IMG/VR virus record: IMGVR_UViG_2895374923_000003
Location: 1-64,000 of that record
Length of the DNA stretch: 64,000 nucleotides
From: a virus
Lineage: Duplodnaviria > Caudoviricetes
Direction: 5' to 3' (one strand)
The translations under genes and the position numbers were made by a program. Of the stretch, positions 376 through 61,553 are shown in pieces. Under the pieces are notes generated by a model. It had not been told where the DNA came from. It saw nothing but the letters and a program-made list of their open reading frames with translations, and made no database searches. The first letter of the stretch is position 1. Every line of letters starts with the position of its first letter.

Positions 376-1956
376 GTGACATTGACGGCCGATGATGACC
401 TGCTCGACTACGAACTGCTGGATGAGACGGAGACCGAGCGCCAGGCGCGCGAGGACACCGAGGTTCGGCTGGATGAAATCTCGCAGGCGAACGTCGACCT
501 CATTGTCGACAAGACCATGGTCGTGGTCGACGAGCTAAGCGGGCATCCGCTCTACGAATATCAGAAGCCTTTCGCCCGCCGATTCGTCGAGTCCCTCGTC
601 ATCGGTGATGGCGCCACCTTGACCGCGCTCTTCTCCCGGCAGAGTGGGAAAAGTGAGACCGTGGCCAACGTCATTGCGGCCGTGATGATCCTCTTCCCCG
701 TGCTGTCCAGGATCTTCCCCGAGCTCATGGGCAAATTTCGGGAGGGTGTCTGGGTCGGTGCCTTCGCTCCGGTGGATGATCAGGCGGACAACCTGTACGC
801 CCGCATCGTCTCCCGCCTGACCAGTGACCGCGCCATGGAACTCATGACCGACCCGGACATCGACGACTCCGTCCGGGCCAAGGGCCGCACGCTGACCCTG
901 CGCTCCGGCTCCCTCGTGCGCAAGCAGACCTGCCACCCTCGCGCGATCATTGAGGGCCGCACCTACCACGTCATCCTGATCGACGAGTGTCAGGGTGCCG
1001 ACGAGAGAGTCGTCAACAAGAGCATTGGCCCGATGGGTGCCTCGACTAACGCCACCATGGTCTTCACCGGAACGCCTTCCTACGAGAAGGGTGTCTTCTA
1101 CCGCACGATCCAGCTCAACAAGCGCCAGGCCACCAAGCGAGGCTCTCGCCAGAACCATTTCGAGGCCGACTGGAAGGCCGCCGCCAAGGCCAATCCGCAC
1201 TATGGCCGGTTCGTGAAGAAGGAACTGCTGAGAATCGGCGAGGACAGCGACGAGTTCAAGCTGTCGTACAGGTTGATGTGGCTGCTGGCTCAGGGCATGT
1301 TCACCACGGCCGAGGTCATCTCCAGCCTCGGCGACAAGAGCATGGAGATCGTGAAGGACTGGTATCGCAGCCCGATCCTGGTGGGCATCGACCCAGCCCG
1401 AAAGCAGGACTCCACCATCGCCACGGCCGTGTGGGTCGACTGGGCCAACCCGGACGAGTTCGGCTTCTACAACCACCGGATCTTGAACTGGCTCGACCTG
1501 TCCGGCATGAACTGGGAGGAACAATACTTCCGGTTGGTGGAATGGATGAGCCACTACTACGTCTACAAGGTGGGCGTGGACAGCGGGGGTGTCGGCGATG
1601 CGGTCGCCCAGCGCCTCCAGGTCCTGATGCCAGGCGTGGAGGTCGTCCCGCTCGGCAGCCAGCGGCCCGACCAGTCCAAGCGCTGGAAGCACCTGTCCCA
1701 GCTCCTCGACAGGCACCGGATCGCCTGGCCAGCGCACGCCAAGACCCGCCGGTTGCGCACCTACCGCCGCTTCGCGCAGCAGATGGAAGACCTCCAACTC
1801 GTCTACACCGGCCCGTACATGCTCGCCGAGGCTCCCAACGAAGCCGACGCCCACGACGACTACCCGGACTCCCTGGCGATGGCCTGCATCCTGGCCTCTG
1901 ACGACAACCAAATGCCCGAGATCGAGGTCGGCAATAACCCGTTCTTTCGCCGCTGA
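376..1956 (+). CDS. terL: Terminase large subunit
   Basis: Walker A SRQSGKSE, Walker B VILIDE, nuclease motifs VGIDPA and DDYPDSLA; upstream of portal. Confidence 0.95.
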   Translation: MTLTADDDLLDYELLDETETERQAREDTEVRLDEISQANVDLIVDKTMVVVDELSGHPLYEYQKPFARRFVESLVIGDGATLTALFSRQSGKSETVANVIAAVMILFPVLSRIFPELMGKFREGVWVGAFAPVDDQADNLYARIVSRLTSDRAMELMTDPDIDDSVRAKGRTLTLRSGSLVRKQTCHPRAIIEGRTYHVILIDECQGADERVVNKSIGPMGASTNATMVFTGTPSYEKGVFYRTIQLNKRQATKRGSRQNHFEADWKAAAKANPHYGRFVKKELLRIGEDSDEFKLSYRLMWLLAQGMFTTAEVISSLGDKSMEIVKDWYRSPILVGIDPARKQDSTIATAVWVDWANPDEFGFYNHRILNWLDLSGMNWEEQYFRLVEWMSHYYVYKVGVDSGGVGDAVAQRLQVLMPGVEVVPLGSQRPDQSKRWKHLSQLLDRHRIAWPAHAKTRRLRTYRRFAQQMEDLQLVYTGPYMLAEAPNEADAHDDYPDSLAMACILASDDNQMPEIEVGNNPFFRR

Positions 1957-2028
1957 ATTACAAACCGGACAGCCATTCTTCCTACTCTGGGAATGTCGCT
2001 AATTTCCATGGAAGCGAGCATTTCCCAC

Positions 2029-2445
2029 ATGGCAGATCCCATCGAGACCTCCCCTCTCGCGCCGTCCCCGCAGTACCCGGAGCGCATCACCCCGGTCTAC
2101 GAGCGCAAGGCGGGAGTCAACGGTGTCCGGCGCGGCCCCCTCCGCTTCGAGGAGGGCGTGGCAACTGACACCGACGTCCCCAACGACTTCCAGGTCGGCA
2201 TCATGCAGGGCTACGTCACCGCCCCGGGCCGCCCGAACCACAACCGCAACGTCTACGTGAAGGCGCCGGCCGAGACCCTGAAGCAGCGCGCTCACGTCGG
2301 CTCCAGCTCCTGGATCGAGGCGCCCACCTTCCTGGGTGAGTTCGCGCACGGCTCCTACGGAGACCACGGCCATATCGAATACGAGCAGGTGACTCGATAC
2401 GGCGGCCACTACACCCGCCGTAACGGTGCCGCGGTGAACGACTGA
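2029..2445 (+). CDS. Hypothetical protein between terL and portal (possibly virion)
   Basis: Coding-like high-GC3 codons from ATG 2029 (track starts at 1993). Confidence 0.7.
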   Translation: MADPIETSPLAPSPQYPERITPVYERKAGVNGVRRGPLRFEEGVATDTDVPNDFQVGIMQGYVTAPGRPNHNRNVYVKAPAETLKQRAHVGSSSWIEAPTFLGEFAHGSYGDHGHIEYEQVTRYGGHYTRRNGAAVND

Positions 2446-2485
2446 TGCGCCCGCGTCGCATATAGCAACTCCGCATTACAAAGCG

Positions 2486-2537
2486 AAAGTGCGCCCTTCA
2501 TACGCTGAAAAGCGAAATGTTGGGCGCGCTTTTCTTT
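2486..2537 (+). terminator. Hairpin with U-tract upstream of portal (terminator or attenuator)
   Basis: AAAGTGCGCCC ... GGGCGCGCTTT (one G-U pair) followed by TCTTT. Confidence 0.55.
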
Positions 2538-2568
2538 GCGCTGGAGATGTTAGAGGTCTCGCGAGTCC

Positions 2569-4278
2569 GTGTCGGCTATTGCGTTCTACCCACCGGCACA
2601 ACGCGCCGCGGGCTCAGACCTTGCCATCTCCATCTCGCCGCTCGGCCTTGTCGAGTTGGCCGACGAAGAATTTGAAGTCCACGGCCCTCGGCTGAACCGG
2701 TACGCCCTCAACTGGGCCTTCTATCTGGGCCATCACCACGCGTACCGGCGCGAGGCGGGGGAGACCCAGCACACCTCGAACTATGTGCGGGCCCTGACCG
2801 ACTTCGTCGCGAACTTCACCTTCTCCCGCGGCGTCACGTTCTCCTCGGCCAAGCAGTACGCCCACATCGTCCCGGCCCTGCTGAACCGAGTCTGGGAGAC
2901 CGACAACGACAAGCCCAAGGTCCTGCGCGAAATGGCGCAGCAAGGCGGCGTGTCCGGCGACTGCTTCGTCAAGGTGGCATACGACCCGGCCTACGTCGAC
3001 CCGGCCGGCAACACGCACCCCGGCCGCGTCCGGGTCCTTCCCCTGAACTCCTCGTTCGTGTTCCCCGAGTGGCACCCCCACGACCGGGAGCGCATGATCC
3101 GCTGCAAGATCAAGTACAAGTTCTGGACGACCTCGCAAGAGGGCACCCGCCAGGTCATGACGTACACCGAGATCGTCACCGCCGACCGCATCGAGGAATA
3201 CGTCAACGACGACTTGATCGACAGCCGCGCCAACCCGCTCGGCTGCATCCCGATCGTCCACGTGCCCAACGTCGATGTCTCCGGCTCGCCCTGGGGTCTG
3301 GCCGACTGCCAGGACGTTGTCCCGCTGAACAGGACCTACAACGAGGTCGCCACCCAGGTCGCGGACATCATCGCCTACCACGCCGAGCCGGTCACGATCA
3401 TCACCGGGGCCAAGGCGTCCAACCTCGAAAAGGGCGCCAAGAAAGTCTGGGGCGGCCTGCCCAAGGACGCGAGCGTCTTCAACCTCGAAAACGGCGTCAA
3501 CCTGGCGGGCCCCATGGAGTTCCTGGAACTCCTGAAGCGCACCATGCACGAAATGACCGGCGTCCCCGAGACGGCCCTCGGCCAAATCCAGCCGATCTCC
3601 AACACCTCCGGCGTGGCCCTGGCCATTCAGTACCAGCCGATGATGAACCGCTACAACGCCAAGAAGGTCAACTACACCGCAGGGCTGCGGCGGATCAACG
3701 AACTCGTGTTGCGGACGCTTTTCGTCTTCGAGCCGGAAACGCGCTTCTACGACCCGGCCACCGACGGCATCATCCAGGACGACCAGCCGTACATCATCGA
3801 CCCGGCAGACCCCCTGGTGTACCGCACGACCGTCGACTGGCCGCCCCCGCTGCCTGTCGACGCATTGATCAAGCTCAATGAGATTCAGACCAAGATGGCG
3901 CTCGGCTTGGAAAGCAAGCGCGGAGCGCTTAAGGACTTGGGCGTCGAATTCCCCGACGAGAAAATCCAGGAGATTTTCGAGGAATTGGTGCTCGACGCCA
4001 AGGAGCAGGGTGCGCTCGACATGCTAAACGCGCATATTGCCTCTGCTATCGTTCAAATGACTGGGATGAATCCCGATGGTTCGCCTCAGGAAAACTCAAC
4101 CCCGCTACAAGGCAGTACTAATTCGGAATCCGCGGGCCCTGTGCCGATGCCACCGGTGAATAAAGAACTCGCCGGGCTCATCGGCTCTCAGGAAAACAAC
4201 CTCATCAACGAACTGGTGACACAGGCGTACGGCACCAAATTGCCGCAGCGCCGAAATCCGGACGCAGATGACGCCTAG
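2569..4278 (+). CDS. Portal protein (SPP1 gp6-like)
   Basis: 569 aa between terL and scaffold; NPLGCIPIVHVPN, GLADCQDVVPL, SNTSGVAL portal-type motifs. Confidence 0.9.
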   Translation: MSAIAFYPPAQRAAGSDLAISISPLGLVELADEEFEVHGPRLNRYALNWAFYLGHHHAYRREAGETQHTSNYVRALTDFVANFTFSRGVTFSSAKQYAHIVPALLNRVWETDNDKPKVLREMAQQGGVSGDCFVKVAYDPAYVDPAGNTHPGRVRVLPLNSSFVFPEWHPHDRERMIRCKIKYKFWTTSQEGTRQVMTYTEIVTADRIEEYVNDDLIDSRANPLGCIPIVHVPNVDVSGSPWGLADCQDVVPLNRTYNEVATQVADIIAYHAEPVTIITGAKASNLEKGAKKVWGGLPKDASVFNLENGVNLAGPMEFLELLKRTMHEMTGVPETALGQIQPISNTSGVALAIQYQPMMNRYNAKKVNYTAGLRRINELVLRTLFVFEPETRFYDPATDGIIQDDQPYIIDPADPLVYRTTVDWPPPLPVDALIKLNEIQTKMALGLESKRGALKDLGVEFPDEKIQEIFEELVLDAKEQGALDMLNAHIASAIVQMTGMNPDGSPQENSTPLQGSTNSESAGPVPMPPVNKELAGLIGSQENNLINELVTQAYGTKLPQRRNPDADDA

Positions 4279-54408: not shown

Positions 54409-54533
54409 GCGAGCTCGACCACTCCCCGCGGCCCCTGGCCCCGCAGAACAAGGCGGCCGTCACCCCCGAGGACGGTGAGCAGGACGGCGAGATCCTGGAC
54501 CTGCCCGTCTACGACGGCGGGAGCGGCTGGTGA
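54405..54533 (+). CDS. 42-aa acidic peptide
   Basis: ATGA and GTGA overlaps at both ends. Confidence 0.55.
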   Translation: MSELDHSPRPLAPQNKAAVTPEDGEQDGEILDLPVYDGGSGW

Positions 54534-55339
54534 GCCTCACCGTCGAGGAGTTCCTCGACACCCTCAAGAGCTTCAAGGGTTACCGCGAGCAGCCCGACAA
54601 GGACACCACCTTCGGCCTGTGGTGGGACTCCCGGCACCGCACGCACGGCTTCCGCGACGCCGCCTGGTGCGACATGTTCCTGGCCTACTGCGCCTTCAAA
54701 GCCGGCGGCGAGCAGGGCCTGGACATCATCGGCGAATATGCGTACACGCCCTACCATGCAGGCTGGTTCGCCCGCCACGGAGCGTTCGGCAACCGGCCCA
54801 CCAAGGGCGCCGTGGTGTTCTTCGACTGGGCAGGCACCCGCTCGATCAGCGCCATCGACCACGTCGGTGTGGTCCTGGGCACCGACAACCGGGGCCGCGT
54901 GGTCACCATCGAGGGCAACACCGAGGACGCGGTCAAGATCCGCTACCGCGACCGCCGCTACATCGTCGGCTACGGCTATCCCAAGTACGCCAAGGTCAGC
55001 GTCAAGCCCCGCCCGGACGAGAAGCCCGACAAGCCGACCAAGCCGACCCGGCCCACCAAGCCGTCGACTGGCAACCAGGCGCCGCGCTTCCCCCTGAGCG
55101 CAGGCCAGGTCTACGGCATCGGCCACCGCACCGGCACCGCCAAGGCCGACAGGGACGCCATCCGCCGTGTGCAGGCCAAGCTCGCCGACCGCGGCTGGAA
55201 CATCACCGCTGACGGCGTCTTCGGCCCCATCACCCGCCAGGTCGTACGCGCCTTCCAGGACGAGAAGGGCTTGGCCGTCGACGGCCTCGTCGGCCCCCGC
55301 ACCTGGGCCGCGATCTGGGACGCCCCCGTCACCGCCTGA
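54530..55339 (+). CDS. Endolysin: CHAP domain plus PG_binding_1 domain
   Basis: AWCDMF, DHVGVV, TIEGNT; KP-rich linker; DGVFGPIT...FQ...GLAVDGLVGPRTW. Confidence 0.92.
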   Translation: MSLTVEEFLDTLKSFKGYREQPDKDTTFGLWWDSRHRTHGFRDAAWCDMFLAYCAFKAGGEQGLDIIGEYAYTPYHAGWFARHGAFGNRPTKGAVVFFDWAGTRSISAIDHVGVVLGTDNRGRVVTIEGNTEDAVKIRYRDRRYIVGYGYPKYAKVSVKPRPDEKPDKPTKPTRPTKPSTGNQAPRFPLSAGQVYGIGHRTGTAKADRDAIRRVQAKLADRGWNITADGVFGPITRQVVRAFQDEKGLAVDGLVGPRTWAAIWDAPVTA

Positions 55340-55368: not shown

Positions 55369-55875
55369 ATGACCACCGAACCCAAGATCCGGCTTCTGCT
55401 CTGCGGCACCTGCACCACCATCGAGGAACTGCCCGACCACCACGGCCCGGTCGAATCCGACGACCTGCTCGCCTACCTGGCCTCCCGCCACCGCTTCCCC
55501 TCCGGCACCCCCCACGCGGGCGGCCAGCTCTTCGACGTCGAGGAGAAGCACTGGCGCAACACAGAGACCCGCAAGCAGATCGTCGACCAGATCAACGTCC
55601 GTAGCGGAGAGGGCCTGGGTCGAAGCTTCTATGAGCTGAAGGACACCTTCAAAGAGGACGCCTTCACCTGTTGGAAGAAGCACAACCGCACCACCAACTG
55701 CGGCGACTTCAAGTCCGAGGCCAAACGCCTGACCCCCGACACCGCGGCCGAGCGCAAGGCCGCCGGGCTCGGCAAGGCCCGCTCCAACCGCTTCCTGTGC
55801 GAGTTCTGCCCCCACTTCAGCGTCGTTATGCAGCGCATGCGGGCCGCCCGAGGCGACTACCACTACACCGGCTGA
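55369..55875 (+). CDS. Cys/His-rich putative zinc-binding protein
   Basis: CGTC, C..H...C, CEFCPH. Confidence 0.7.
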   Translation: MTTEPKIRLLLCGTCTTIEELPDHHGPVESDDLLAYLASRHRFPSGTPHAGGQLFDVEEKHWRNTETRKQIVDQINVRSGEGLGRSFYELKDTFKEDAFTCWKKHNRTTNCGDFKSEAKRLTPDTAAERKAAGLGKARSNRFLCEFCPHFSVVMQRMRAARGDYHYTG

Positions 55876-55937
55876 CGCCCGCCCACGCCACCGAACACCA
55901 CCAGGCCCACCAGCCGACCAACCACCCGGAGAACCAC

Positions 55938-56315
55938 ATCAACAGCGCAGGCGCCGCCACCATCATCGGCCACAACCCCGACCCGCAGCCCGCCGCCGGC
56001 CCGAGCCCCACCGGCCCGGATGACACGCCCGCTCCCGGCCTGCCCGTCCGCACCGCGTTCGTCATCTACCAGGACTACGACGGCGCCTGGGTCGGCACCA
56101 ACGACCCCGCCCTCATCAGCGACAAGCTCACCCTCGACAAGACCGCCCACCCCGACGAGATCACCGCCGGATGCTCGGTCGTCGCCGACGAGATCGTCGC
56201 CCAGAAGACGGCCATGCAGGTCCACAACGTCATGATGGCCGCCGCCCGCCAGGCCGCCGAAGCCCAAGCCAACGCCGCCATCCTCAACCAGGTCCGCAAC
56301 GCCCCCAGGCCATAG
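55938..56315 (+). CDS. 125-aa hypothetical protein with apparent AUC start
   Basis: In-frame ATC 6 nt after GGAG; no in-frame ATG/GTG/TTG between the upstream gene's stop and the last third of the frame. Confidence 0.5.
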   Translation: MNSAGAATIIGHNPDPQPAAGPSPTGPDDTPAPGLPVRTAFVIYQDYDGAWVGTNDPALISDKLTLDKTAHPDEITAGCSVVADEIVAQKTAMQVHNVMMAAARQAAEAQANAAILNQVRNAPRP

Positions 56316-56333: not shown

Positions 56334-56367
56334 AAAGGGCCCTCCGCGCGCTTCCGGAGGGCCCTTT
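56334..56367. terminator. Inverted repeat terminator
   Basis: Perfect 13-bp AAAGGGCCCTCCG/CGGAGGGCCCTTT. Confidence 0.75.
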
Positions 56368-56420
56368 CCGCCTATTCGGCGAATAACTCGAAAAACACCA
56401 ATCACCCTAAACTGAAATAC

Positions 56421-57413
56421 ATGGGCTACCAATCGGCGTCACATTATCTCGACAATGCCGCACAATCGTCCGGGCGTATTACCGTCACCTCGGGCCAAAG
56501 CGGCTATTTCTCGACGCCCGATCCCGGCTTCGACCCGGCCCTGTTCGACGGCCAAAAACTCCGGCCGCACGTCCGTGACACGATCACCGGGTCATTCACA
56601 CATTTCATGCGCTCCCGCTTCCGCGACCCGGACTCCTGGACCCGGCTGTGGCTGGCCGGATCCGGCATCTCCCACCAGTGGTCCGGAGACCGAGGCAACG
56701 GCGACCTGGACGTCATGATCGGGATCAACCCCCTGCGCTTCCGCCAGCTCCAACCCGAGCAAGCAGCACTGTCCGAACCGGAGCTGGCGGATTCCCTCAA
56801 CTCCCTGCTGCGAGCTGAACTGTGGCCGCAGACGGCCCGCACCCACTTCGGCGGCAAGCTCTTCGAGCTCACCTACTACTGGAACCCGGCCACCACCAAC
56901 GCCCCGGGCGGCGTCACCGCGATCCACCCCTACGCCGCCTACGACCTGACCGCCGACACCTGGACCGTGCGCCCGCCGCGCCTACCCGCCGACCCGCGCA
57001 CCCTCTACCCGGCCGACTGGTGGGCCCAGGTCGACCGCGAAGCGGCCACCGCCCGCGACATCATCGCCCGCTACAACGCCGCCCGCGGCACCGCCCAATC
57101 CACGTCCATCGCCAGCCCCGGCCACACCAACGCGATGACCGCCCTGCACCTGGCCGTCGACCAGGCCAGCCACCTGTTCGACGACATCCACACCGGCCGC
57201 CACCAAGCCTTCGGGCCCGGCGGCCACGGCTACGGCGACTTCGCCAACTTCCGCTGGCAAGCGGCCAAAGCCTCCGGGATCGGACCGGCGCTGGCCGAGA
57301 TCGCCGCCGTCGGCCGCCAAGCCGCCCTGGACACCCAGCGCCATCTGTACGGCCAGCCGCTCGCCGAGGCCAGCACCGCCCGCCTCCAAGCCCTGCTGTG
57401 GAGCAGCCGATGA
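56421..57413 (+). CDS. Pol-beta superfamily nucleotidyltransferase
   Basis: WLAGS...GDLDV (GS...DxD signature), ELTYY. Confidence 0.75.
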   Translation: MGYQSASHYLDNAAQSSGRITVTSGQSGYFSTPDPGFDPALFDGQKLRPHVRDTITGSFTHFMRSRFRDPDSWTRLWLAGSGISHQWSGDRGNGDLDVMIGINPLRFRQLQPEQAALSEPELADSLNSLLRAELWPQTARTHFGGKLFELTYYWNPATTNAPGGVTAIHPYAAYDLTADTWTVRPPRLPADPRTLYPADWWAQVDREAATARDIIARYNAARGTAQSTSIASPGHTNAMTALHLAVDQASHLFDDIHTGRHQAFGPGGHGYGDFANFRWQAAKASGIGPALAEIAAVGRQAALDTQRHLYGQPLAEASTARLQALLWSSR

Positions 57414-57892
57414 CCGGACTCGCCCTGCTGACCGTGGACGGGCTGCTGCGCGACGAAGCCTCCGGCGCCCCGATCCCCACCGGCCGCGCCCTGTACGCCG
57501 CCATCGCCAGCGTCCACCGCCTGGCCCTCATCAGCGACCAGCCCGCCAGCCCGTGGCTGGAACTCAACGGGTTCACCGACCACCAGTTCGTCCTCGAAGC
57601 CCACCCCACCGACCCCGACGACCCAGCCATTCGCCGGCTACGCCAGGTCGAGCGGCTACGCGGCCAAGGCGCCCACATCGCCCTGCTGGCCGACCCCAAC
57701 CCAGGCGTCATCGCGATCCTGGCCAGCAGCGGCATCCCCCTCCTGCACTACATCCACCCTGCCTACGCACGCCCCGAGTACCTGCCGGACCACGAGGCGG
57801 CCCTGACCCCCTGGCAGCTCATGGTCGACGAGGTCGACCGCGTGCGCGGCCTGCGCGCTGCCGACCCCCGACCCGACAAGGACGCCCTGTGA
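57410..57892 (+). CDS. Degenerate HAD-fold protein
   Basis: ALLTVDGLL at motif-I position (first Asp absent), LALIS, LLADPNP; ATGA overlap. Confidence 0.55.
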   Translation: MTGLALLTVDGLLRDEASGAPIPTGRALYAAIASVHRLALISDQPASPWLELNGFTDHQFVLEAHPTDPDDPAIRRLRQVERLRGQGAHIALLADPNPGVIAILASSGIPLLHYIHPAYARPEYLPDHEAALTPWQLMVDEVDRVRGLRAADPRPDKDAL

Positions 57893-58722
57893 TCAACCCC
57901 GACGCCGTACCCGAGATCCTCGCCCAGCGCGCCGCTCGCCTGCACGCCGCGGGCAAGCTGTTCAACGGGTTCGTCAACAACCCCGGCCAGCAGCGCATCC
58001 GCGCCCGCGCCGAGCGCGGCAAGAAGCAGGCCACCGCCCGGGCCCGCGCCGAGTGGGAGCAGGCCGCCCGCAACGCCAGCGTCAAGAACCCCGCGCCCGT
58101 ACCGGGGCCGACGACCGCACCCGGCGCGGGAGTGGACCTGTCGCCCTACGACAAGCCGTCCGCCGTCACCTTCGACCCGCTCAACCGCTCCAGCGCGAGC
58201 GACAAGCGAAAGGCAGCCCCGGCGCCGGGCGCCCGCAACCACGTCGGCCAGGTCATCCCGCCCAGCCCGCAGGAGAAGGCCGCGTTCATCCAGCGGCGCG
58301 TCGCTCCGTACGTGCGCCAGCTCAACCGCGTCACCGACCCGCGGGACCTGCCCGCCGTCCAGGCCCGCGTCGGCGCCCGCCAGGTTCCCACCCCCGGGCC
58401 GCTGCCCAAGCCCGGCCCAGCCATCGCCCAGCCCACCCCCGCCCCGGCCGGCCCGCCCCAGCCGCCCACCTACGGCCAGCGGATGCGCCAGGTGATCCGC
58501 GAGGGCATCGAGGACATCCAGGCCAAGCGCATCGCCCAGTCCACCCTCCTGGCCGCCCAGCGCTCCGGCCGCATCCCCCCGCCGACCGGCGGCCAGCAGA
58601 CGCTGTTCACCGTCGGCCAGACCAGCCACACCGCAGGCAAGGCGGCGCCCGCGGGCCGCGCCCCGGTCGACTGGTCAACCGCCCGCAAGCGGGCCCAGCA
58701 CCACCAGCCCGGCCTGTTTTGA
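57889..58722 (+). CDS. Pro/Ala/Arg-rich hypothetical protein
   Basis: 277 aa, GTGA and TGATG overlaps; ends QPGLF. Confidence 0.65.
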   Translation: MINPDAVPEILAQRAARLHAAGKLFNGFVNNPGQQRIRARAERGKKQATARARAEWEQAARNASVKNPAPVPGPTTAPGAGVDLSPYDKPSAVTFDPLNRSSASDKRKAAPAPGARNHVGQVIPPSPQEKAAFIQRRVAPYVRQLNRVTDPRDLPAVQARVGARQVPTPGPLPKPGPAIAQPTPAPAGPPQPPTYGQRMRQVIREGIEDIQAKRIAQSTLLAAQRSGRIPPPTGGQQTLFTVGQTSHTAGKAAPAGRAPVDWSTARKRAQHHQPGLF

Positions 58723-60209
58723 TGTTGTCGCTGTACTTCGGCGGCTCGGAGGTGCCCGGCTGGCGCACCCTCCTGGCCGCCCAAGGCGTCGAGCACGTCG
58801 CCCTGTCCTTTGTCGGGCTGCTGCGCCGGACCAAACTCACCCGGCCCTGGCTCATCTCCGCCAAGTACCCCGACCACCAGAGCGTCTTCGTCGACTCCGG
58901 CGGATACACCCTCAACGCCAAGCCGCAGGAGTGGCCCGCTGAGCGCGTCGAGGACCTGGTTGGCGCCTACCGGACCTTCATCGAAGCCAACCTCGACCGG
59001 ATCGCCATGGTGTCCGAACTGGATGCGACCAGCATGGGGCCGGACTGGCTCGCCCGCCACCGATCGGACTTCTACGACCACCTGGGGGAGAAGTTCCTGC
59101 CGATCTGGCACGCCGAGCACGGCGTTGCCGAACTGGAACGGCTGGCAGACCGCTACGGCCGGGTCGGCGTCCCCCAGATCTCCGTCGCCGGGCGCGACAT
59201 CGCCGGACTCCTCAACCGGCTCGCCCGCCGCGGCGTCCGGATCCACGGCGTGGCCATGACCAAGACCGACCTCATGGAGCAGATCGGATTCGACTCCGTC
59301 GCCTCCACGAGCTGGCTGTCCCCGGCCCAGTACGGCGACACCCAGATCTGGACCGGACACGCCCTCAAGCGCTACCCCCGCAAGTACAAGGACCAGGGCC
59401 GCAAACGCCACCGGCAGCACCTGGAGCGCGCCGGCTTCGACATCGAGCTCATCGAATCGGACAACGCGAGCGAGGTCCTCAAGGTCGCGATCTGGAGCTG
59501 GCGTCGGTTCGTCGACCACATCAACACGCGCAAACGGAAAGTAGTTGATATGTCCCCCGAAACGCCTTCCGGACCAAACGCGGAAGTCGAGCCGGACCCA
59601 GTTGATACCCCCGCCCCGCAAACGCGGAAGCCGGTACCAACTCCTCGCACCGGAGAACGAGCCCTCCTGCCCGGCCTGACCCTGGCCCAGGTGAGCGAAA
59701 CCGGCATCGGAGACGACGGCCAGCCGACCACCACCACCCGCTCCCTCGTCGAGCTCCAGGCCGACAGCCTGCGCCAGTGCGACACCTGCTACCTCGCCTC
59801 CCACTGCCCGGCCAACAGCCCCGGCAGCGCCTGCGCCTACACCATCCCGGTCACCATCAAGACCCGCGACCAGCTCCGCGCCGTCGAGGACGCCGTGGTG
59901 TCCATGCAGTTCCAGCGGGTCGCCTTCCTGCGCCTGGTCGAGGAATCGGAAGGCGGCTACGCCGACCCCAACCTGTCCGCCGAGATCGACCGGCTCCACC
60001 GGATGCTCGCCAAGCGCGCCGAGGCCGACGCCGAGGGCTTCAGCCTGACGGTCAAGGCGTCCGGCCGCGCCATGGCCGAGGGCGGCACCATCGCCCGCCT
60101 GTTCGGCTCCGATGCCAGCCACCGCGCCCGCGAGTTGGAGGCGCCCCGCCGCAGCGATGACGTCCTGGCCAGCCTGGACGTCGTCGAGGCAGAGGTCATC
60201 GACAGGTAG
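58722..60209 (+). CDS. TGT/DpdA-like TIM-barrel protein fused to a Cys-rich C-terminal domain
   Basis: FVDSGG, ELD, IHG, FDSVASTSW; linker; CDTCYLASHC...C. Confidence 0.7.
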   Translation: MLSLYFGGSEVPGWRTLLAAQGVEHVALSFVGLLRRTKLTRPWLISAKYPDHQSVFVDSGGYTLNAKPQEWPAERVEDLVGAYRTFIEANLDRIAMVSELDATSMGPDWLARHRSDFYDHLGEKFLPIWHAEHGVAELERLADRYGRVGVPQISVAGRDIAGLLNRLARRGVRIHGVAMTKTDLMEQIGFDSVASTSWLSPAQYGDTQIWTGHALKRYPRKYKDQGRKRHRQHLERAGFDIELIESDNASEVLKVAIWSWRRFVDHINTRKRKVVDMSPETPSGPNAEVEPDPVDTPAPQTRKPVPTPRTGERALLPGLTLAQVSETGIGDDGQPTTTTRSLVELQADSLRQCDTCYLASHCPANSPGSACAYTIPVTIKTRDQLRAVEDAVVSMQFQRVAFLRLVEESEGGYADPNLSAEIDRLHRMLAKRAEADAEGFSLTVKASGRAMAEGGTIARLFGSDASHRARELEAPRRSDDVLASLDVVEAEVIDR

Positions 60210-60394
60210 TTGATATCCCGGCCCGCTGAGAGCAGGAAACCCTCTCTTCAGCGAGGCTGAGCGCGAGTGCCCGGCTGCTACCTTGGGCCTCGAGGCCGCC
60301 GCTCAGCGGTGGTTCCTTCGGTCGGCGGGGTGGTGCCCGCCGATTGGTTGGGCACCAGGGCGGATGGTACCCCCTGGTGTTTGGTGGAAATACG

Positions 60395-60440: not shown

Positions 60441-61553
60441 TCAGACCTTGGTCAAGCAGGTCCGGCCCCCGCGCGTGGTGATCTCCTCCCTGCGCCGCTC
60501 AGGATCGGCGTCCCACGTCACGATGGCCGATGCCTTGGCCACGCGCCCGGTCACGGTCCCCAGGCGGCCCGTCTTGCTCGACTGGACCCGATCGGACTCA
60601 TCCAGCGGAACCAAGGTGTCGAAGTCAAAGCAGCAGTCCACGTAGGCGTAGCCGTTCTCATCCGTGACCATCCGGGCGCGGTGGTGGAAGGGGCACAGCA
60701 GGTGGCTCTCGTGCCGAGCCCAGCCGTCATCGCCCAGGTCCCGCTGCGCGCCGCAGTCACGGCACCGGTCGGACAGGTCGACCTGGAGCGGGCCGGATTC
60801 CACCACGCCGAGCTGCTGGCCCAGCGATCGGATCCCGTGGAGCAGACCGGCAGTCGCCGCCACCGTGGCATCCGAGGCAGGGAAGGCGGCCCGCAGCGCC
60901 ATCACCTGCGAACCGTGGTCAGCCACCACAGCCATGCTCTCCAGCAGTCCCAGCACCTTCTCCAGGTCATCAAGACTCACTGGAGCGGTCCGGACTTCGC
61001 CGCTGTGGTAGCCGTGCCTCTCCTGGTGCTCGATGGTCACCCCGTGGACGGCCAGCCGGTCGGCGATGGCGTTGTTCCGATCGCACGAGGCCATGATGCG
61101 CTCGCGGCGGGCCTGACGCAGAGCCTCGGCCTGCGCCTCCTCCTCGCGCCGCGCCGTGACGGTCGGCTCATACTCACCGAGGATCTTGGGTAGCGACGAC
61201 ACGAGGATGTACTCAAAGCCGTCGTCAGTGCTCGCCTTCGTCGCGGCCAGCATGTCGTCCAGCTTGACCGTGGCGGCCTTGGCCTGGAGCCGCTCCGCCG
61301 TTTGCGACAGCGTCTCATCCTTCTTGGAGGTGACGGTCAGCGCCGGGTATCCGGCCACACGGTTGCCGTAGGCGCTCAGCCGTGCGGGCCTGGCCTCCCT
61401 GGACGTCTGGAACACGGTGGAGCCGTTGCGGCGGTCGTAGGAATCGGCGTGCTGGACAAGCTGGGAAAGGTCGTTGAGGAACACAACGGGGTTGTCAAAG
61501 CCCCGGTGGTCGTAGAGGTAGACGAGGCCCGGCTGGATGTCGGCCTTCTTCAT
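60441..61553 (-). CDS. Hypothetical protein with C-terminal Zn/HNH-like motif
   Basis: GAAGGAG RBS; CRDCG...LLCPFHHR; coiled-coil middle. Confidence 0.7.
   Translation of the reverse strand: MKKADIQPGLVYLYDHRGFDNPVVFLNDLSQLVQHADSYDRRNGSTVFQTSREARPARLSAYGNRVAGYPALTVTSKKDETLSQTAERLQAKAATVKLDDMLAATKASTDDGFEYILVSSLPKILGEYEPTVTARREEEAQAEALRQARRERIMASCDRNNAIADRLAVHGVTIEHQERHGYHSGEVRTAPVSLDDLEKVLGLLESMAVVADHGSQVMALRAAFPASDATVAATAGLLHGIRSLGQQLGVVESGPLQVDLSDRCRDCGAQRDLGDDGWARHESHLLCPFHHRARMVTDENGYAYVDCCFDFDTLVPLDESDRVQSSKTGRLGTVTGRVAKASAIVTWDADPERRREEITTRGGRTCLTKV

Follow-up and report, generated by a model that had tools for sequence, protein, structure and literature searches.

What becomes of a base-exchanging enzyme once the residue that performs the exchange is gone? 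This question is raised by a block of four overlapping genes, g1 to g4, in a 64,000-nucleotide stretch of viral DNA (IMG/VR record IMGVR_UViG_2895374923_000003, positions 1 to 64,000; hereafter the window). An initial annotation, made by a model from the letters alone, had described the products as a nucleotidyltransferase (NTase), a HAD-like protein, a disordered protein and a barrel resembling tRNA-guanine transglycosylases (TGTs) and the phage enzyme DpdA, with alanine where the catalytic aspartate was expected. Here we report that this alanine does lie at the nucleophile position of g4, that the replacement is fixed throughout a large family of phages and prophages, and that no supply of 7-deazaguanine accompanies it. 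We tentatively propose, as the reading that we prefer without holding it more than half probable, that g4 is a neofunctionalised, non-exchanging DNA-binding protein that has kept its guanine pocket.

g4 has the barrel and the two-domain architecture of a DpdA subfamily

Sequence searches of g1 to g4 against Pfam, NCBIfam, PADLOC and the PDB, including the Pfam TGT family for g4, returned nothing, and the only family hit for the four proteins was that of g4 to PHROG 887 ('queuine tRNA-ribosyltransferase'). This match is essentially full-length (E = 8.5e-70, residues 3-494 on positions 11-506 of a 509-position profile) and covers both a barrel and a CX2CX5CX8C/helical domain. The AlphaFold (AF2) model of g4, built from 34 homologues, displayed a TGT-type (beta/alpha)8 barrel with a predicted local distance difference test score (pLDDT) above 90 over residues 1-270. 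VIA-align superposed it on human, archaeal and bacterial TGTs with Z scores of 16-17 and a root-mean-square deviation of 3.3-3.9 A over about 265 residues, and Foldseek returned TGTs and the DNA preQ0 insertase DpdA (7ui4) among its matches, with a probability of 1.00. Profile-sequence comparison with hhalign gave E values of 3.5e-11 to the DpdA of Enterobacteria phage 9g and 2.9e-23 to gp021 of Bacillus phage BCD7. The barrel assignment of the initial annotation is thereby borne out. Its description of a fused four-cysteine domain also stands, with one correction: the third cysteine follows after five residues, not four. A search for short, barrel-only forms of g4 recovered two fragments only.

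No known fold or family was found for the helical region that follows the cysteines, for which the ESM Atlas gave only rows below threshold (0.79 at most); a small terminase subunit of phage T5 suggested by one such row was not trusted. Since the record of one relative starts near the gene, g4 itself was also considered as a terminase, and this was ruled out: the window has its large terminase subunit and portal genes elsewhere, and the fold of g4 is that of a TGT.

The catalytic nucleophile is replaced throughout the family

In the DpdA of S. Montevideo, Asp95 serves as general acid/base, recognition of the base falls to Asp130 and His181, and Asp256 is the nucleophile; D95A and D256A each abolish guanine exchange, and the three aspartates are invariant in TGTs and DpdAs (PMC10164549). 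We located these positions in g4 by hhalign. Asp58 falls on the DSG aspartate of phage 9g, BCD7 and E. coli Tgt (Asp89 in the latter), Asp101 on the base-reading aspartate, and His175, followed by Gly176, on His196 of 9g DpdA. By contrast, the position of the nucleophile (Asp256 in S. Montevideo DpdA, Asp280 in Zm TGT) is held by Ala194, which sits on the aspartate of 'SCDSSSW' in 9g and of 'TGDSTTW' in BCD7. The coordinates given earlier for the SVASTSW motif, with its alanine at 59301, and for an intact DSGG beginning at 58893 (Asp58) are correct.

The initial annotation had named one way in which g4 could still be an ordinary DpdA, namely that alignment would place the catalytic aspartate in the neighbouring FD (59289-59294, with Asp191 at 59292). 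The alignment does not place it there. Position 191 is D, S, H, E, N, A, T, G or Y within the family, its counterparts are Tyr in the 9g enzyme and Phe in that of BCD7, and we ruled out Asp191 as a shifted nucleophile.

Among 120 database homologues, the 113 in which the motif was found carry at position 194 A in 88 cases, S in 16, G in 8 and L in 1; in the viral loci with the motif only A, S and T occur there, and no acidic residue (D or E). Its neighbours Ser192, Ser195, Ser197 and Trp198 are invariant, position 58 is D or E in all 120 close homologues, Asp101 is invariant, and His175-Gly176 is nearly so. Because lytic phages and prophages alike show an unchanging motif around Ala194, the alanine is a fixed feature of a conserved protein, and a pseudogene decaying in a single prophage was ruled out. 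Asp206 is invariant in the Ala-type clade; the residue is Glu in BCD7 and is absent in 9g and in Bacteroides phage BS162P1. Three distant Ala-type viral contigs (L043, L059, L061) have lost the DSG aspartate too, with NSG, GAG and DPA in its place, a sign that in some lineages the catalytic site has eroded further. Together with the missing supply of the base described below, the alignments effectively exclude ordinary 7-deazaguanine insertion by g4, and we hold with high confidence that canonical double-displacement exchange is excluded.

No supply of 7-deazaguanine accompanies the Ala-type genes

To exchange guanine for a 7-deazaguanine, g4 would need access to that base, through que genes of the phage or through a pathway or transporter of the host; neither was found. 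The relatives that share the two-domain architecture and have kept the aspartate (BCD7, BS162P1 and five further viral contigs of BS162P1 type) all carry queC and/or queE close by, at most about 3 kb away (7/7 loci), one short contig showing queE only, and the BCD7 locus also has folE and queD. No que gene was detected near any of 55 Ala-type loci, within 7 kb on each side. In agreement with the initial annotation, tblastn found no homologue of folE, queC, queD or queE in the window. At the level of complete genomes, QueC was not found in the phages BRock and GiJojo nor in a 106-kb viral record (G002), and the same comparison recovered it in BCD7 and BS162P1. A search of the rest of the genome for preQ0 genes, which the initial annotation had proposed, likewise gave no TGT, QueC, PTPS/QueD or YhhQ transporter in the whole host genome, and the sole FolE, on another contig, is of the folate type. 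The host therefore appears, from its gene content, to lack queuosine and 7-deazaguanine metabolism altogether.

In a quick tree of the barrels, the Asp-type sequences lie on one side of a single branch, with weak support (74), so that a single loss is enough to explain the pattern. Few lineages being involved, the correlation between loss of the aspartate and absence of que genes is suggestive rather than statistical.

The neighbouring genes: a probable NTase, a candidate pseudo-phosphatase and a variable disordered protein

The four genes are coupled, as first described, by overlapping junctions (ATGA, GTGA and TGATG, indicating translational coupling), and the G+C content at third codon positions (GC3) is 0.87-0.95 in each called frame. 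They were said to lie between two terminators. Hairpins do flank the block, but a scanner based on T-runs called neither of them.

In g1, the expected Pol-beta NTase motif is present as GS-x13-DLD. It agrees with the superfamily pattern hG[GS]-x9-13-DhD plus a third carboxylate; Gly80, Ser81, Asp95, Asp97 and Glu149 are invariant in 37 homologues, and the helical domain is strongly conserved. The AF2 model has a pLDDT of 90. Structure searches mostly returned generic helical bundles, together with weak matches near background: MNT-type NTases over residues 47-178 (Z = 6.2 for 1no5_B, 5.5 for 1ylq_A) and, by Foldseek, CD-NTases, the terminal uridylyltransferase TUT7 and CCA enzymes (E = 0.04-0.1). 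PHROG, like Pfam, NCBIfam and PADLOC, gave no match. On the grounds of its motifs, g1 is probably an active NTase-like enzyme, and its subfamily is not assignable. The 'nucleotidyltransferase' gp015 of BCD7 was considered as a homologue and dropped, as the two share no similarity.

Although g2 has no Pfam match, its Atlas model resembles clusters of the PF25109 phosphatase domain, the HAD domain of the type found in polynucleotide kinase-phosphatase (PNKP), with template modelling scores of 0.63-0.67 over residues 1-125. hhalign to six actinobacterial PF25109 domains (L069-L074, from G025, G070, G096, G078, G182 and G183) gave E = 1.6e-6 and a probability of 90%, and set the first aspartate of motif I, the nucleophile of DxDx[TV], on Thr8. 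The unpublished genomes G011, G034, G036 and G040 underlie none of the claims made here. Position 8 is hydrophobic (I/V/M/L) across 29 relatives, and the second motif-I position is D, E, W or N. The only family invariants are Gly11, Gly25, Pro126 and Trp135. With Thr8 at the aspartate of motif I and no invariant acidic residue, the Rossmannoid HAD fold of g2 would be unable to form a phospho-aspartate, which makes the protein a candidate pseudo-phosphatase and agrees with the earlier remark on its missing first Asp. A profile match to a short beta-alpha unit of PdxJ (E = 8e-4) was judged non-specific.

As anticipated, g3 is Pro/Ala-rich and apparently disordered, and it is a real coding sequence (GC3 0.95). 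It is hypervariable, ranging from 128 to 695 residues in relatives. Of 37 candidate g3 tails, 15 carry Qxx[LM]F or QxLxxF, versus 21 of 2643 control tails. The tail reads QPGLF here (58705-58722), TQPGLF or GQGS[LM]F in metagenomic relatives and NQPLRNF in BRock, and NQPL[RH][NK]F is found near the C-terminus of some g3 proteins that are otherwise unalignable with that of the window. The motif resembles the pentapeptide that binds the beta clamp (DnaN), QL[SD]LF. As a lead only, we suggest that it may bind the sliding clamp or else be a peptide to which a partner protein docks.

The four-gene block is the synteny of one phage group

Do these genes form one system? The order found here after the endolysin recurs in BRock (gp39-36) and GiJojo (178-181), and the g1-g2 overlap is common among relatives; in one sub-lineage an extra gene lies between the two. 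Upstream of g4 in 53 informative viral loci, tblastn detected g0, a small cysteine-rich gene, in 51, g2 in 48 and g1 in 40. The most constant neighbour of g4 is accordingly g0, while g1 was not found upstream in 13 of the 53 loci and g3 is absent in 8. Neither g0, g1 nor g2 was found beside Asp-type relatives. Co-occurrence of the four genes across phages, which the initial annotation had put forward as a check, is incomplete by these counts, and as all of it comes from a single syntenic lineage, it gives no independent sign that the genes are linked in function. The suggestion of a base-binding or altered-chemistry TGT working with an NTase thus divides: Ala194 makes its first part a fair description, and the partnership with the NTase is not supported. 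We conclude from gene order that the four-gene block is real and conserved as the synteny of one phage group, coupling beyond co-transcription not being demonstrated.

What could g4 do without its nucleophile?

We propose that g4 derives from the two-domain branch (BCD7 gp21-type, PHROG 887) of phage DpdA DNA-guanine transglycosylases, and that the nucleophilic Asp gave way to a small residue (Ala, Ser or Gly) in a lineage of actinophages comprising BRock- and GiJojo-like phages and prophages of Streptosporangiaceae and Streptomyces. The guanine pocket would have been kept, with the general acid Asp58, the stacking Tyr62, Asp101 and His175-Gly176, and so would the Cys4 C-terminal domain. Lacking a covalent ribosyl-enzyme intermediate, such a protein could not exchange guanine for 7-deazaguanine. 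It may still bind DNA and accept guanine in its pocket: conservation of the pocket, a small residue at position 194 and a Cys4 domain retained as in the catalytic relatives suggest that g4 still engages a guanine-like base. We picture it as a non-exchanging DNA-binding subunit acting on replicating or late phage DNA, possibly together with the nucleophile-less g2, with g3 through its clamp-like Qxx[LM]F motif and, where present, with g1, the NTase that looks active. Several points weigh against this proposal. The choice of DNA over RNA as ligand derives from the nearest relatives only, the clamp reading of g3 from resemblance to the QL[SD]LF consensus; Asp206 could be a relocated catalytic residue; and the kept Asp58 and strictly small residue 194 are no less expected of a protein that still performs chemistry, hydrolysis for instance, than of one that only binds.

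The last two points lead to the main competing explanation, which we consider unlikely but take seriously, that g4 is a hydrolytic N-glycosidase acting on guanine in DNA (or RNA) and leaving an abasic site. A small residue 194 would leave room for a water molecule, Asp58 would protonate the leaving base, and an acid such as Asp206 or Glu99 would activate the water. Conservation of Asp/Glu58, Tyr62, Asp101 and His175 as in active DpdA is in keeping with such chemistry, as are the restriction of position 194 to A, S and G and the invariance of Asp206 in the Ala-type clade only; the CX2CX5C part of the cysteine cluster also has the spacing seen in iron-sulfur DNA glycosylases. However, the TGT fold offers no precedent for hydrolysis, an untargeted guanine glycosylase would harm the phage's own DNA, and no apurinic/apyrimidinic (AP) endonuclease or lyase could be recognised among the genes of the operon. 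The absence of the DSG aspartate from three distant relatives also speaks against a glycosidase and favours binding, although these copies may be decaying. Rather improbable in our view is that the products of g1 to g4 work as a single machine with catalysis by the NTase, while g2 and g4 bind the substrate and offer either the end of a nucleic acid or a flipped guanine to be nucleotidylated, as a new modification or an anti-defence activity. The overlapping start and stop codons that couple all four genes argue for it, as do the g1-g2 overlap kept in many relatives, the invariant catalytic motifs of g1, and the loss by g2 and g4 of exactly the residue that forms the covalent intermediate while their folds were kept. 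Yet the block is loose (g1 absent upstream in 13/53 loci, an extra gene splitting g1 and g2 in one sub-lineage, g3 absent in 8), everything in its favour is drawn from one syntenic lineage, neither PADLOC nor any other family search gave a match, and g0, g1 and g2 do not accompany the Asp-type relatives. We give only slight credence to the boldest version, a phage machine not described before in which the nucleophile-less g2 and g4 act as substrate clamps, g1 as an active NTase and g3 as a disordered adaptor tethered to the sliding clamp, marking or protecting DNA at flipped guanines or 3' ends by a new modification chemistry or as an anti-defence device at the replication fork.

Two further explanations both seem very unlikely to us. 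In the first, g4 would act on RNA, binding tRNA anticodon loops and, with g2 and g1, shielding or repairing tRNAs cut by anticodon nucleases of the host. The best structural matches of g4 are indeed tRNA TGTs, the nearest fold to g2 is the phosphatase domain of a polynucleotide kinase-phosphatase, which heals RNA and DNA ends, and GiJojo has 29 tRNAs. But the closest relatives in sequence are DNA-acting phage DpdAs beside preQ0 genes, g2 without its nucleophile cannot heal ends, and the operon has no kinase or ligase. In the other, which we find the hardest of all to credit, g4 is an ordinary DpdA that places preQ0, or a 7-deazaguanine akin to it, in phage DNA, the base being supplied by the host and the nucleophile lying elsewhere in the protein. 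Membership of the family by profile and fold would fit, and the gene is so annotated in the RefSeq entries of BRock and GiJojo. Against it stand the family-wide absence of the nucleophilic Asp with no conservation of the nearby Asp191, the inactivation of S. Montevideo DpdA by D256A, a host without QueC, QueD, TGT and YhhQ, and three complete phage genomes without que genes. We therefore retain the non-exchanging, guanine-binding g4 as the preferred explanation.

Genomic setting and a repeated DNA element in the g4 linker

The window (G000:C34:87307-151306) is part of a 735-kb contig in the 11.4-Mb genome of an actinomycete host (about 71% GC, 100% complete by markers, contamination estimate 7%). 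It contains a BRock-like prophage, a large tailed-phage genome with nearly all genes on the + strand, and includes terminase, portal and tail genes and a replication block with an initiator, DnaB helicase, primase, helicase, Pol I, ribonucleotide reductase, a UvsX-like recombinase, thymidylate synthase, deoxynucleoside monophosphate kinase and RuvC. The g1 to g4 genes are the last of the rightward block, and leftward genes start at 60441. The closest homologue of g1 is a Nonomuraea protein (96%). Table 1 lists the features discussed.

Upstream, g0 has six invariant residues (Cys12, Cys101, Cys111, Cys144, Cys147 and His41) and no family match in PHROG; it is probably a metal-binding protein. 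Between g0 and the first hairpin, a small gene (55899-56315, GC3 0.95) encodes a protein whose N-terminal part is Pro-rich and whose C-terminal half looks conserved.

The sequence AGTTGRTAY occurs seven times in the window, versus 0.2 expected, and three of the boxes fall in the part of g4 that encodes its interdomain linker. The linker is poorly conserved around them, with Val294 and Thr307 nearly invariant, and these two residues look like imprints of the DNA element on the protein. Relatives with 44-56% protein identity (L008, L015, L016, L035, L055 and L057) have inverted AGTTG[A/G/C]TA pairs at the same place, and this sequence is enriched genome-wide in relatives (15, 10 and 11 copies, versus 2, 1 and 2 of a control). 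This arrangement is reminiscent of lambda, whose origin is situated within gene O, in the stretch that encodes a linker.

Table 1 Features of the window discussed in the text (positions are those of the window)
Feature	Position	Strand	Description
TerL and portal	376-4275		Phage genes: terminase large subunit and portal
Other AGTTGRTAY boxes	60208-60216(+), 29793, 31500(+), 31525(-)		Some in or near the replication-initiator gene
Endolysin-like gene	54530-55339		
g0	55369-55875	+	168 residues, Cys-rich; set apart from g1 by another gene and a hairpin
GC-rich hairpin	56335-56370	+	Perfect 13-bp stem, 3' of the small gene and 5' of g1; free energy -34 kcal/mol, z -3.6; candidate terminator or attenuator
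g1	56421-57413	+	330 residues; putative minimal Pol-beta-type NTase core (about residues 47-180) and conserved helical bundle
g2	57410-57892	+	160 residues; predicted PNKP-phosphatase-type HAD fold without nucleophilic Asp (Thr8)
g3	57889-58722	+	277 residues; Pro/Ala-rich, low-complexity; C-terminus QPGLF
g4	58722-60209	+	TGT/DpdA barrel, interdomain linker and Cys4/helical C-terminal domain
g4 barrel	58722-59537	+	Residues 1-272; TIM barrel; Asp58, Tyr62, Asp101 and His175-Gly176 kept, Ala194 at the nucleophile position
Ala194 codon	59301-59303	+	Aligned to the DpdA nucleophile (Asp256 in S. Montevideo)
g4 interdomain linker	59538-59777	+	Low pLDDT; three AGTTGRTAY boxes
AGTTGRTAY boxes in g4 linker	59543-59551(+), 59600-59608(+), 59634-59642(-)		
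CX2CX5CX8C cluster of g4	59778-59834	+	Cys353, Cys356, Cys362 and Cys371, all invariant; same spacing in BCD7 and BS162P1
g4 C-terminal helical region	59835-60209	+	Invariant QR...E..GGY.D.N motif
Weaker hairpin	about 60219-60259	+	3' of the g4 stop codon; z -2.0

Significance

DpdA is regarded as the hallmark of 7-deazaguanine modification in DNA, and annotators label genes of the g4 type 'queuine tRNA-ribosyltransferase' or 'dpdA-like transglycosylase'. We describe a large clade, with hundreds of copies in actinophages and prophages, that lacks the nucleophile and the que genes seen beside its Asp-type relatives. Applied to this clade, such labels mislead, and inferring modified DNA from gene content would give wrong predictions. 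Should g4 prove to be a base-flipping reader or a glycosylase, it would represent a new function for the TGT fold. Cultivable members of the clade exist, namely BRock, GiJojo, Alone3 and LuckySocke.

Comparison with known systems

A TGT-fold protein that has lost catalytic competence and is nevertheless conserved has a parallel in QTRT2, the non-catalytic subunit of the eukaryotic TGT. QTRT2 partners a catalytic TGT, whereas the prophage that encodes g4 and its host have no catalytic TGT or DpdA. In the same way, g2 has the fold and motif order of the PNKP-type HAD phosphatase domain (PF25109), but the first Asp of DxDGT is replaced by Thr, Ile or Val and no invariant acidic residue is left.

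The Supplementary Data of Hutinet et al. 2019 list the BRock gene (APC46298) as a DpdA without synthesis genes, and these authors suggested that singleton DpdAs may have diverged functionally. The Ala-type clade, to which this gene belongs as a DpdA homologue standing alone, provides a concrete case for their question about the role of singletons. Their singleton clusters differ from g4 in infecting Mycobacterium and gamma-proteobacteria, hosts that often have the queuosine pathway. DpdA3 and DpdA4 were later defined with no mention of the g4 group (Hutinet et al. 2023), and our literature search found no paper reporting loss of the nucleophile in it.

With the DpdAs of phage 9g (gp03) and S. 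Montevideo (7UI4), g4 shares the TIM-barrel TGT fold, the DSG aspartate, the base-recognition Asp and His, and the 'S-x-[D/A]-S-x-S-W' strand. It differs from them in having Ala instead of the nucleophile, in showing no CxCxxC...H zinc motif right after the barrel and instead a distant Cys4 domain after a linker of about 45 residues, and in having neither a 7-deazaguanine supply nor a DpdB-like partner.

The closest counterparts of g4 are BCD7 gp021 (YP_007005872) and BS162P1 00087/00088, both DpdA-like and of PHROG 887. They have the same barrel and a C-terminal CX2CX5CX8C and helical domain with a GG[YMV]AD motif. Unlike g4, they have kept the nucleophilic Asp ('TGDSTTW' in BCD7, 'SVDSVTW' in BS162P1) and adjoin folE, queC, queD and queE in BCD7 and queC and queE in BS162P1. 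At the BS162P1 locus (L062:8908-10540), queC lies immediately upstream and queE downstream, and all are annotated as hypothetical proteins. Also unlike g4, BS162P1 encodes the barrel and the Cys4/helical domain as two separate adjacent genes, which indicates that the C-terminal domain is able to work as a subunit in its own right.

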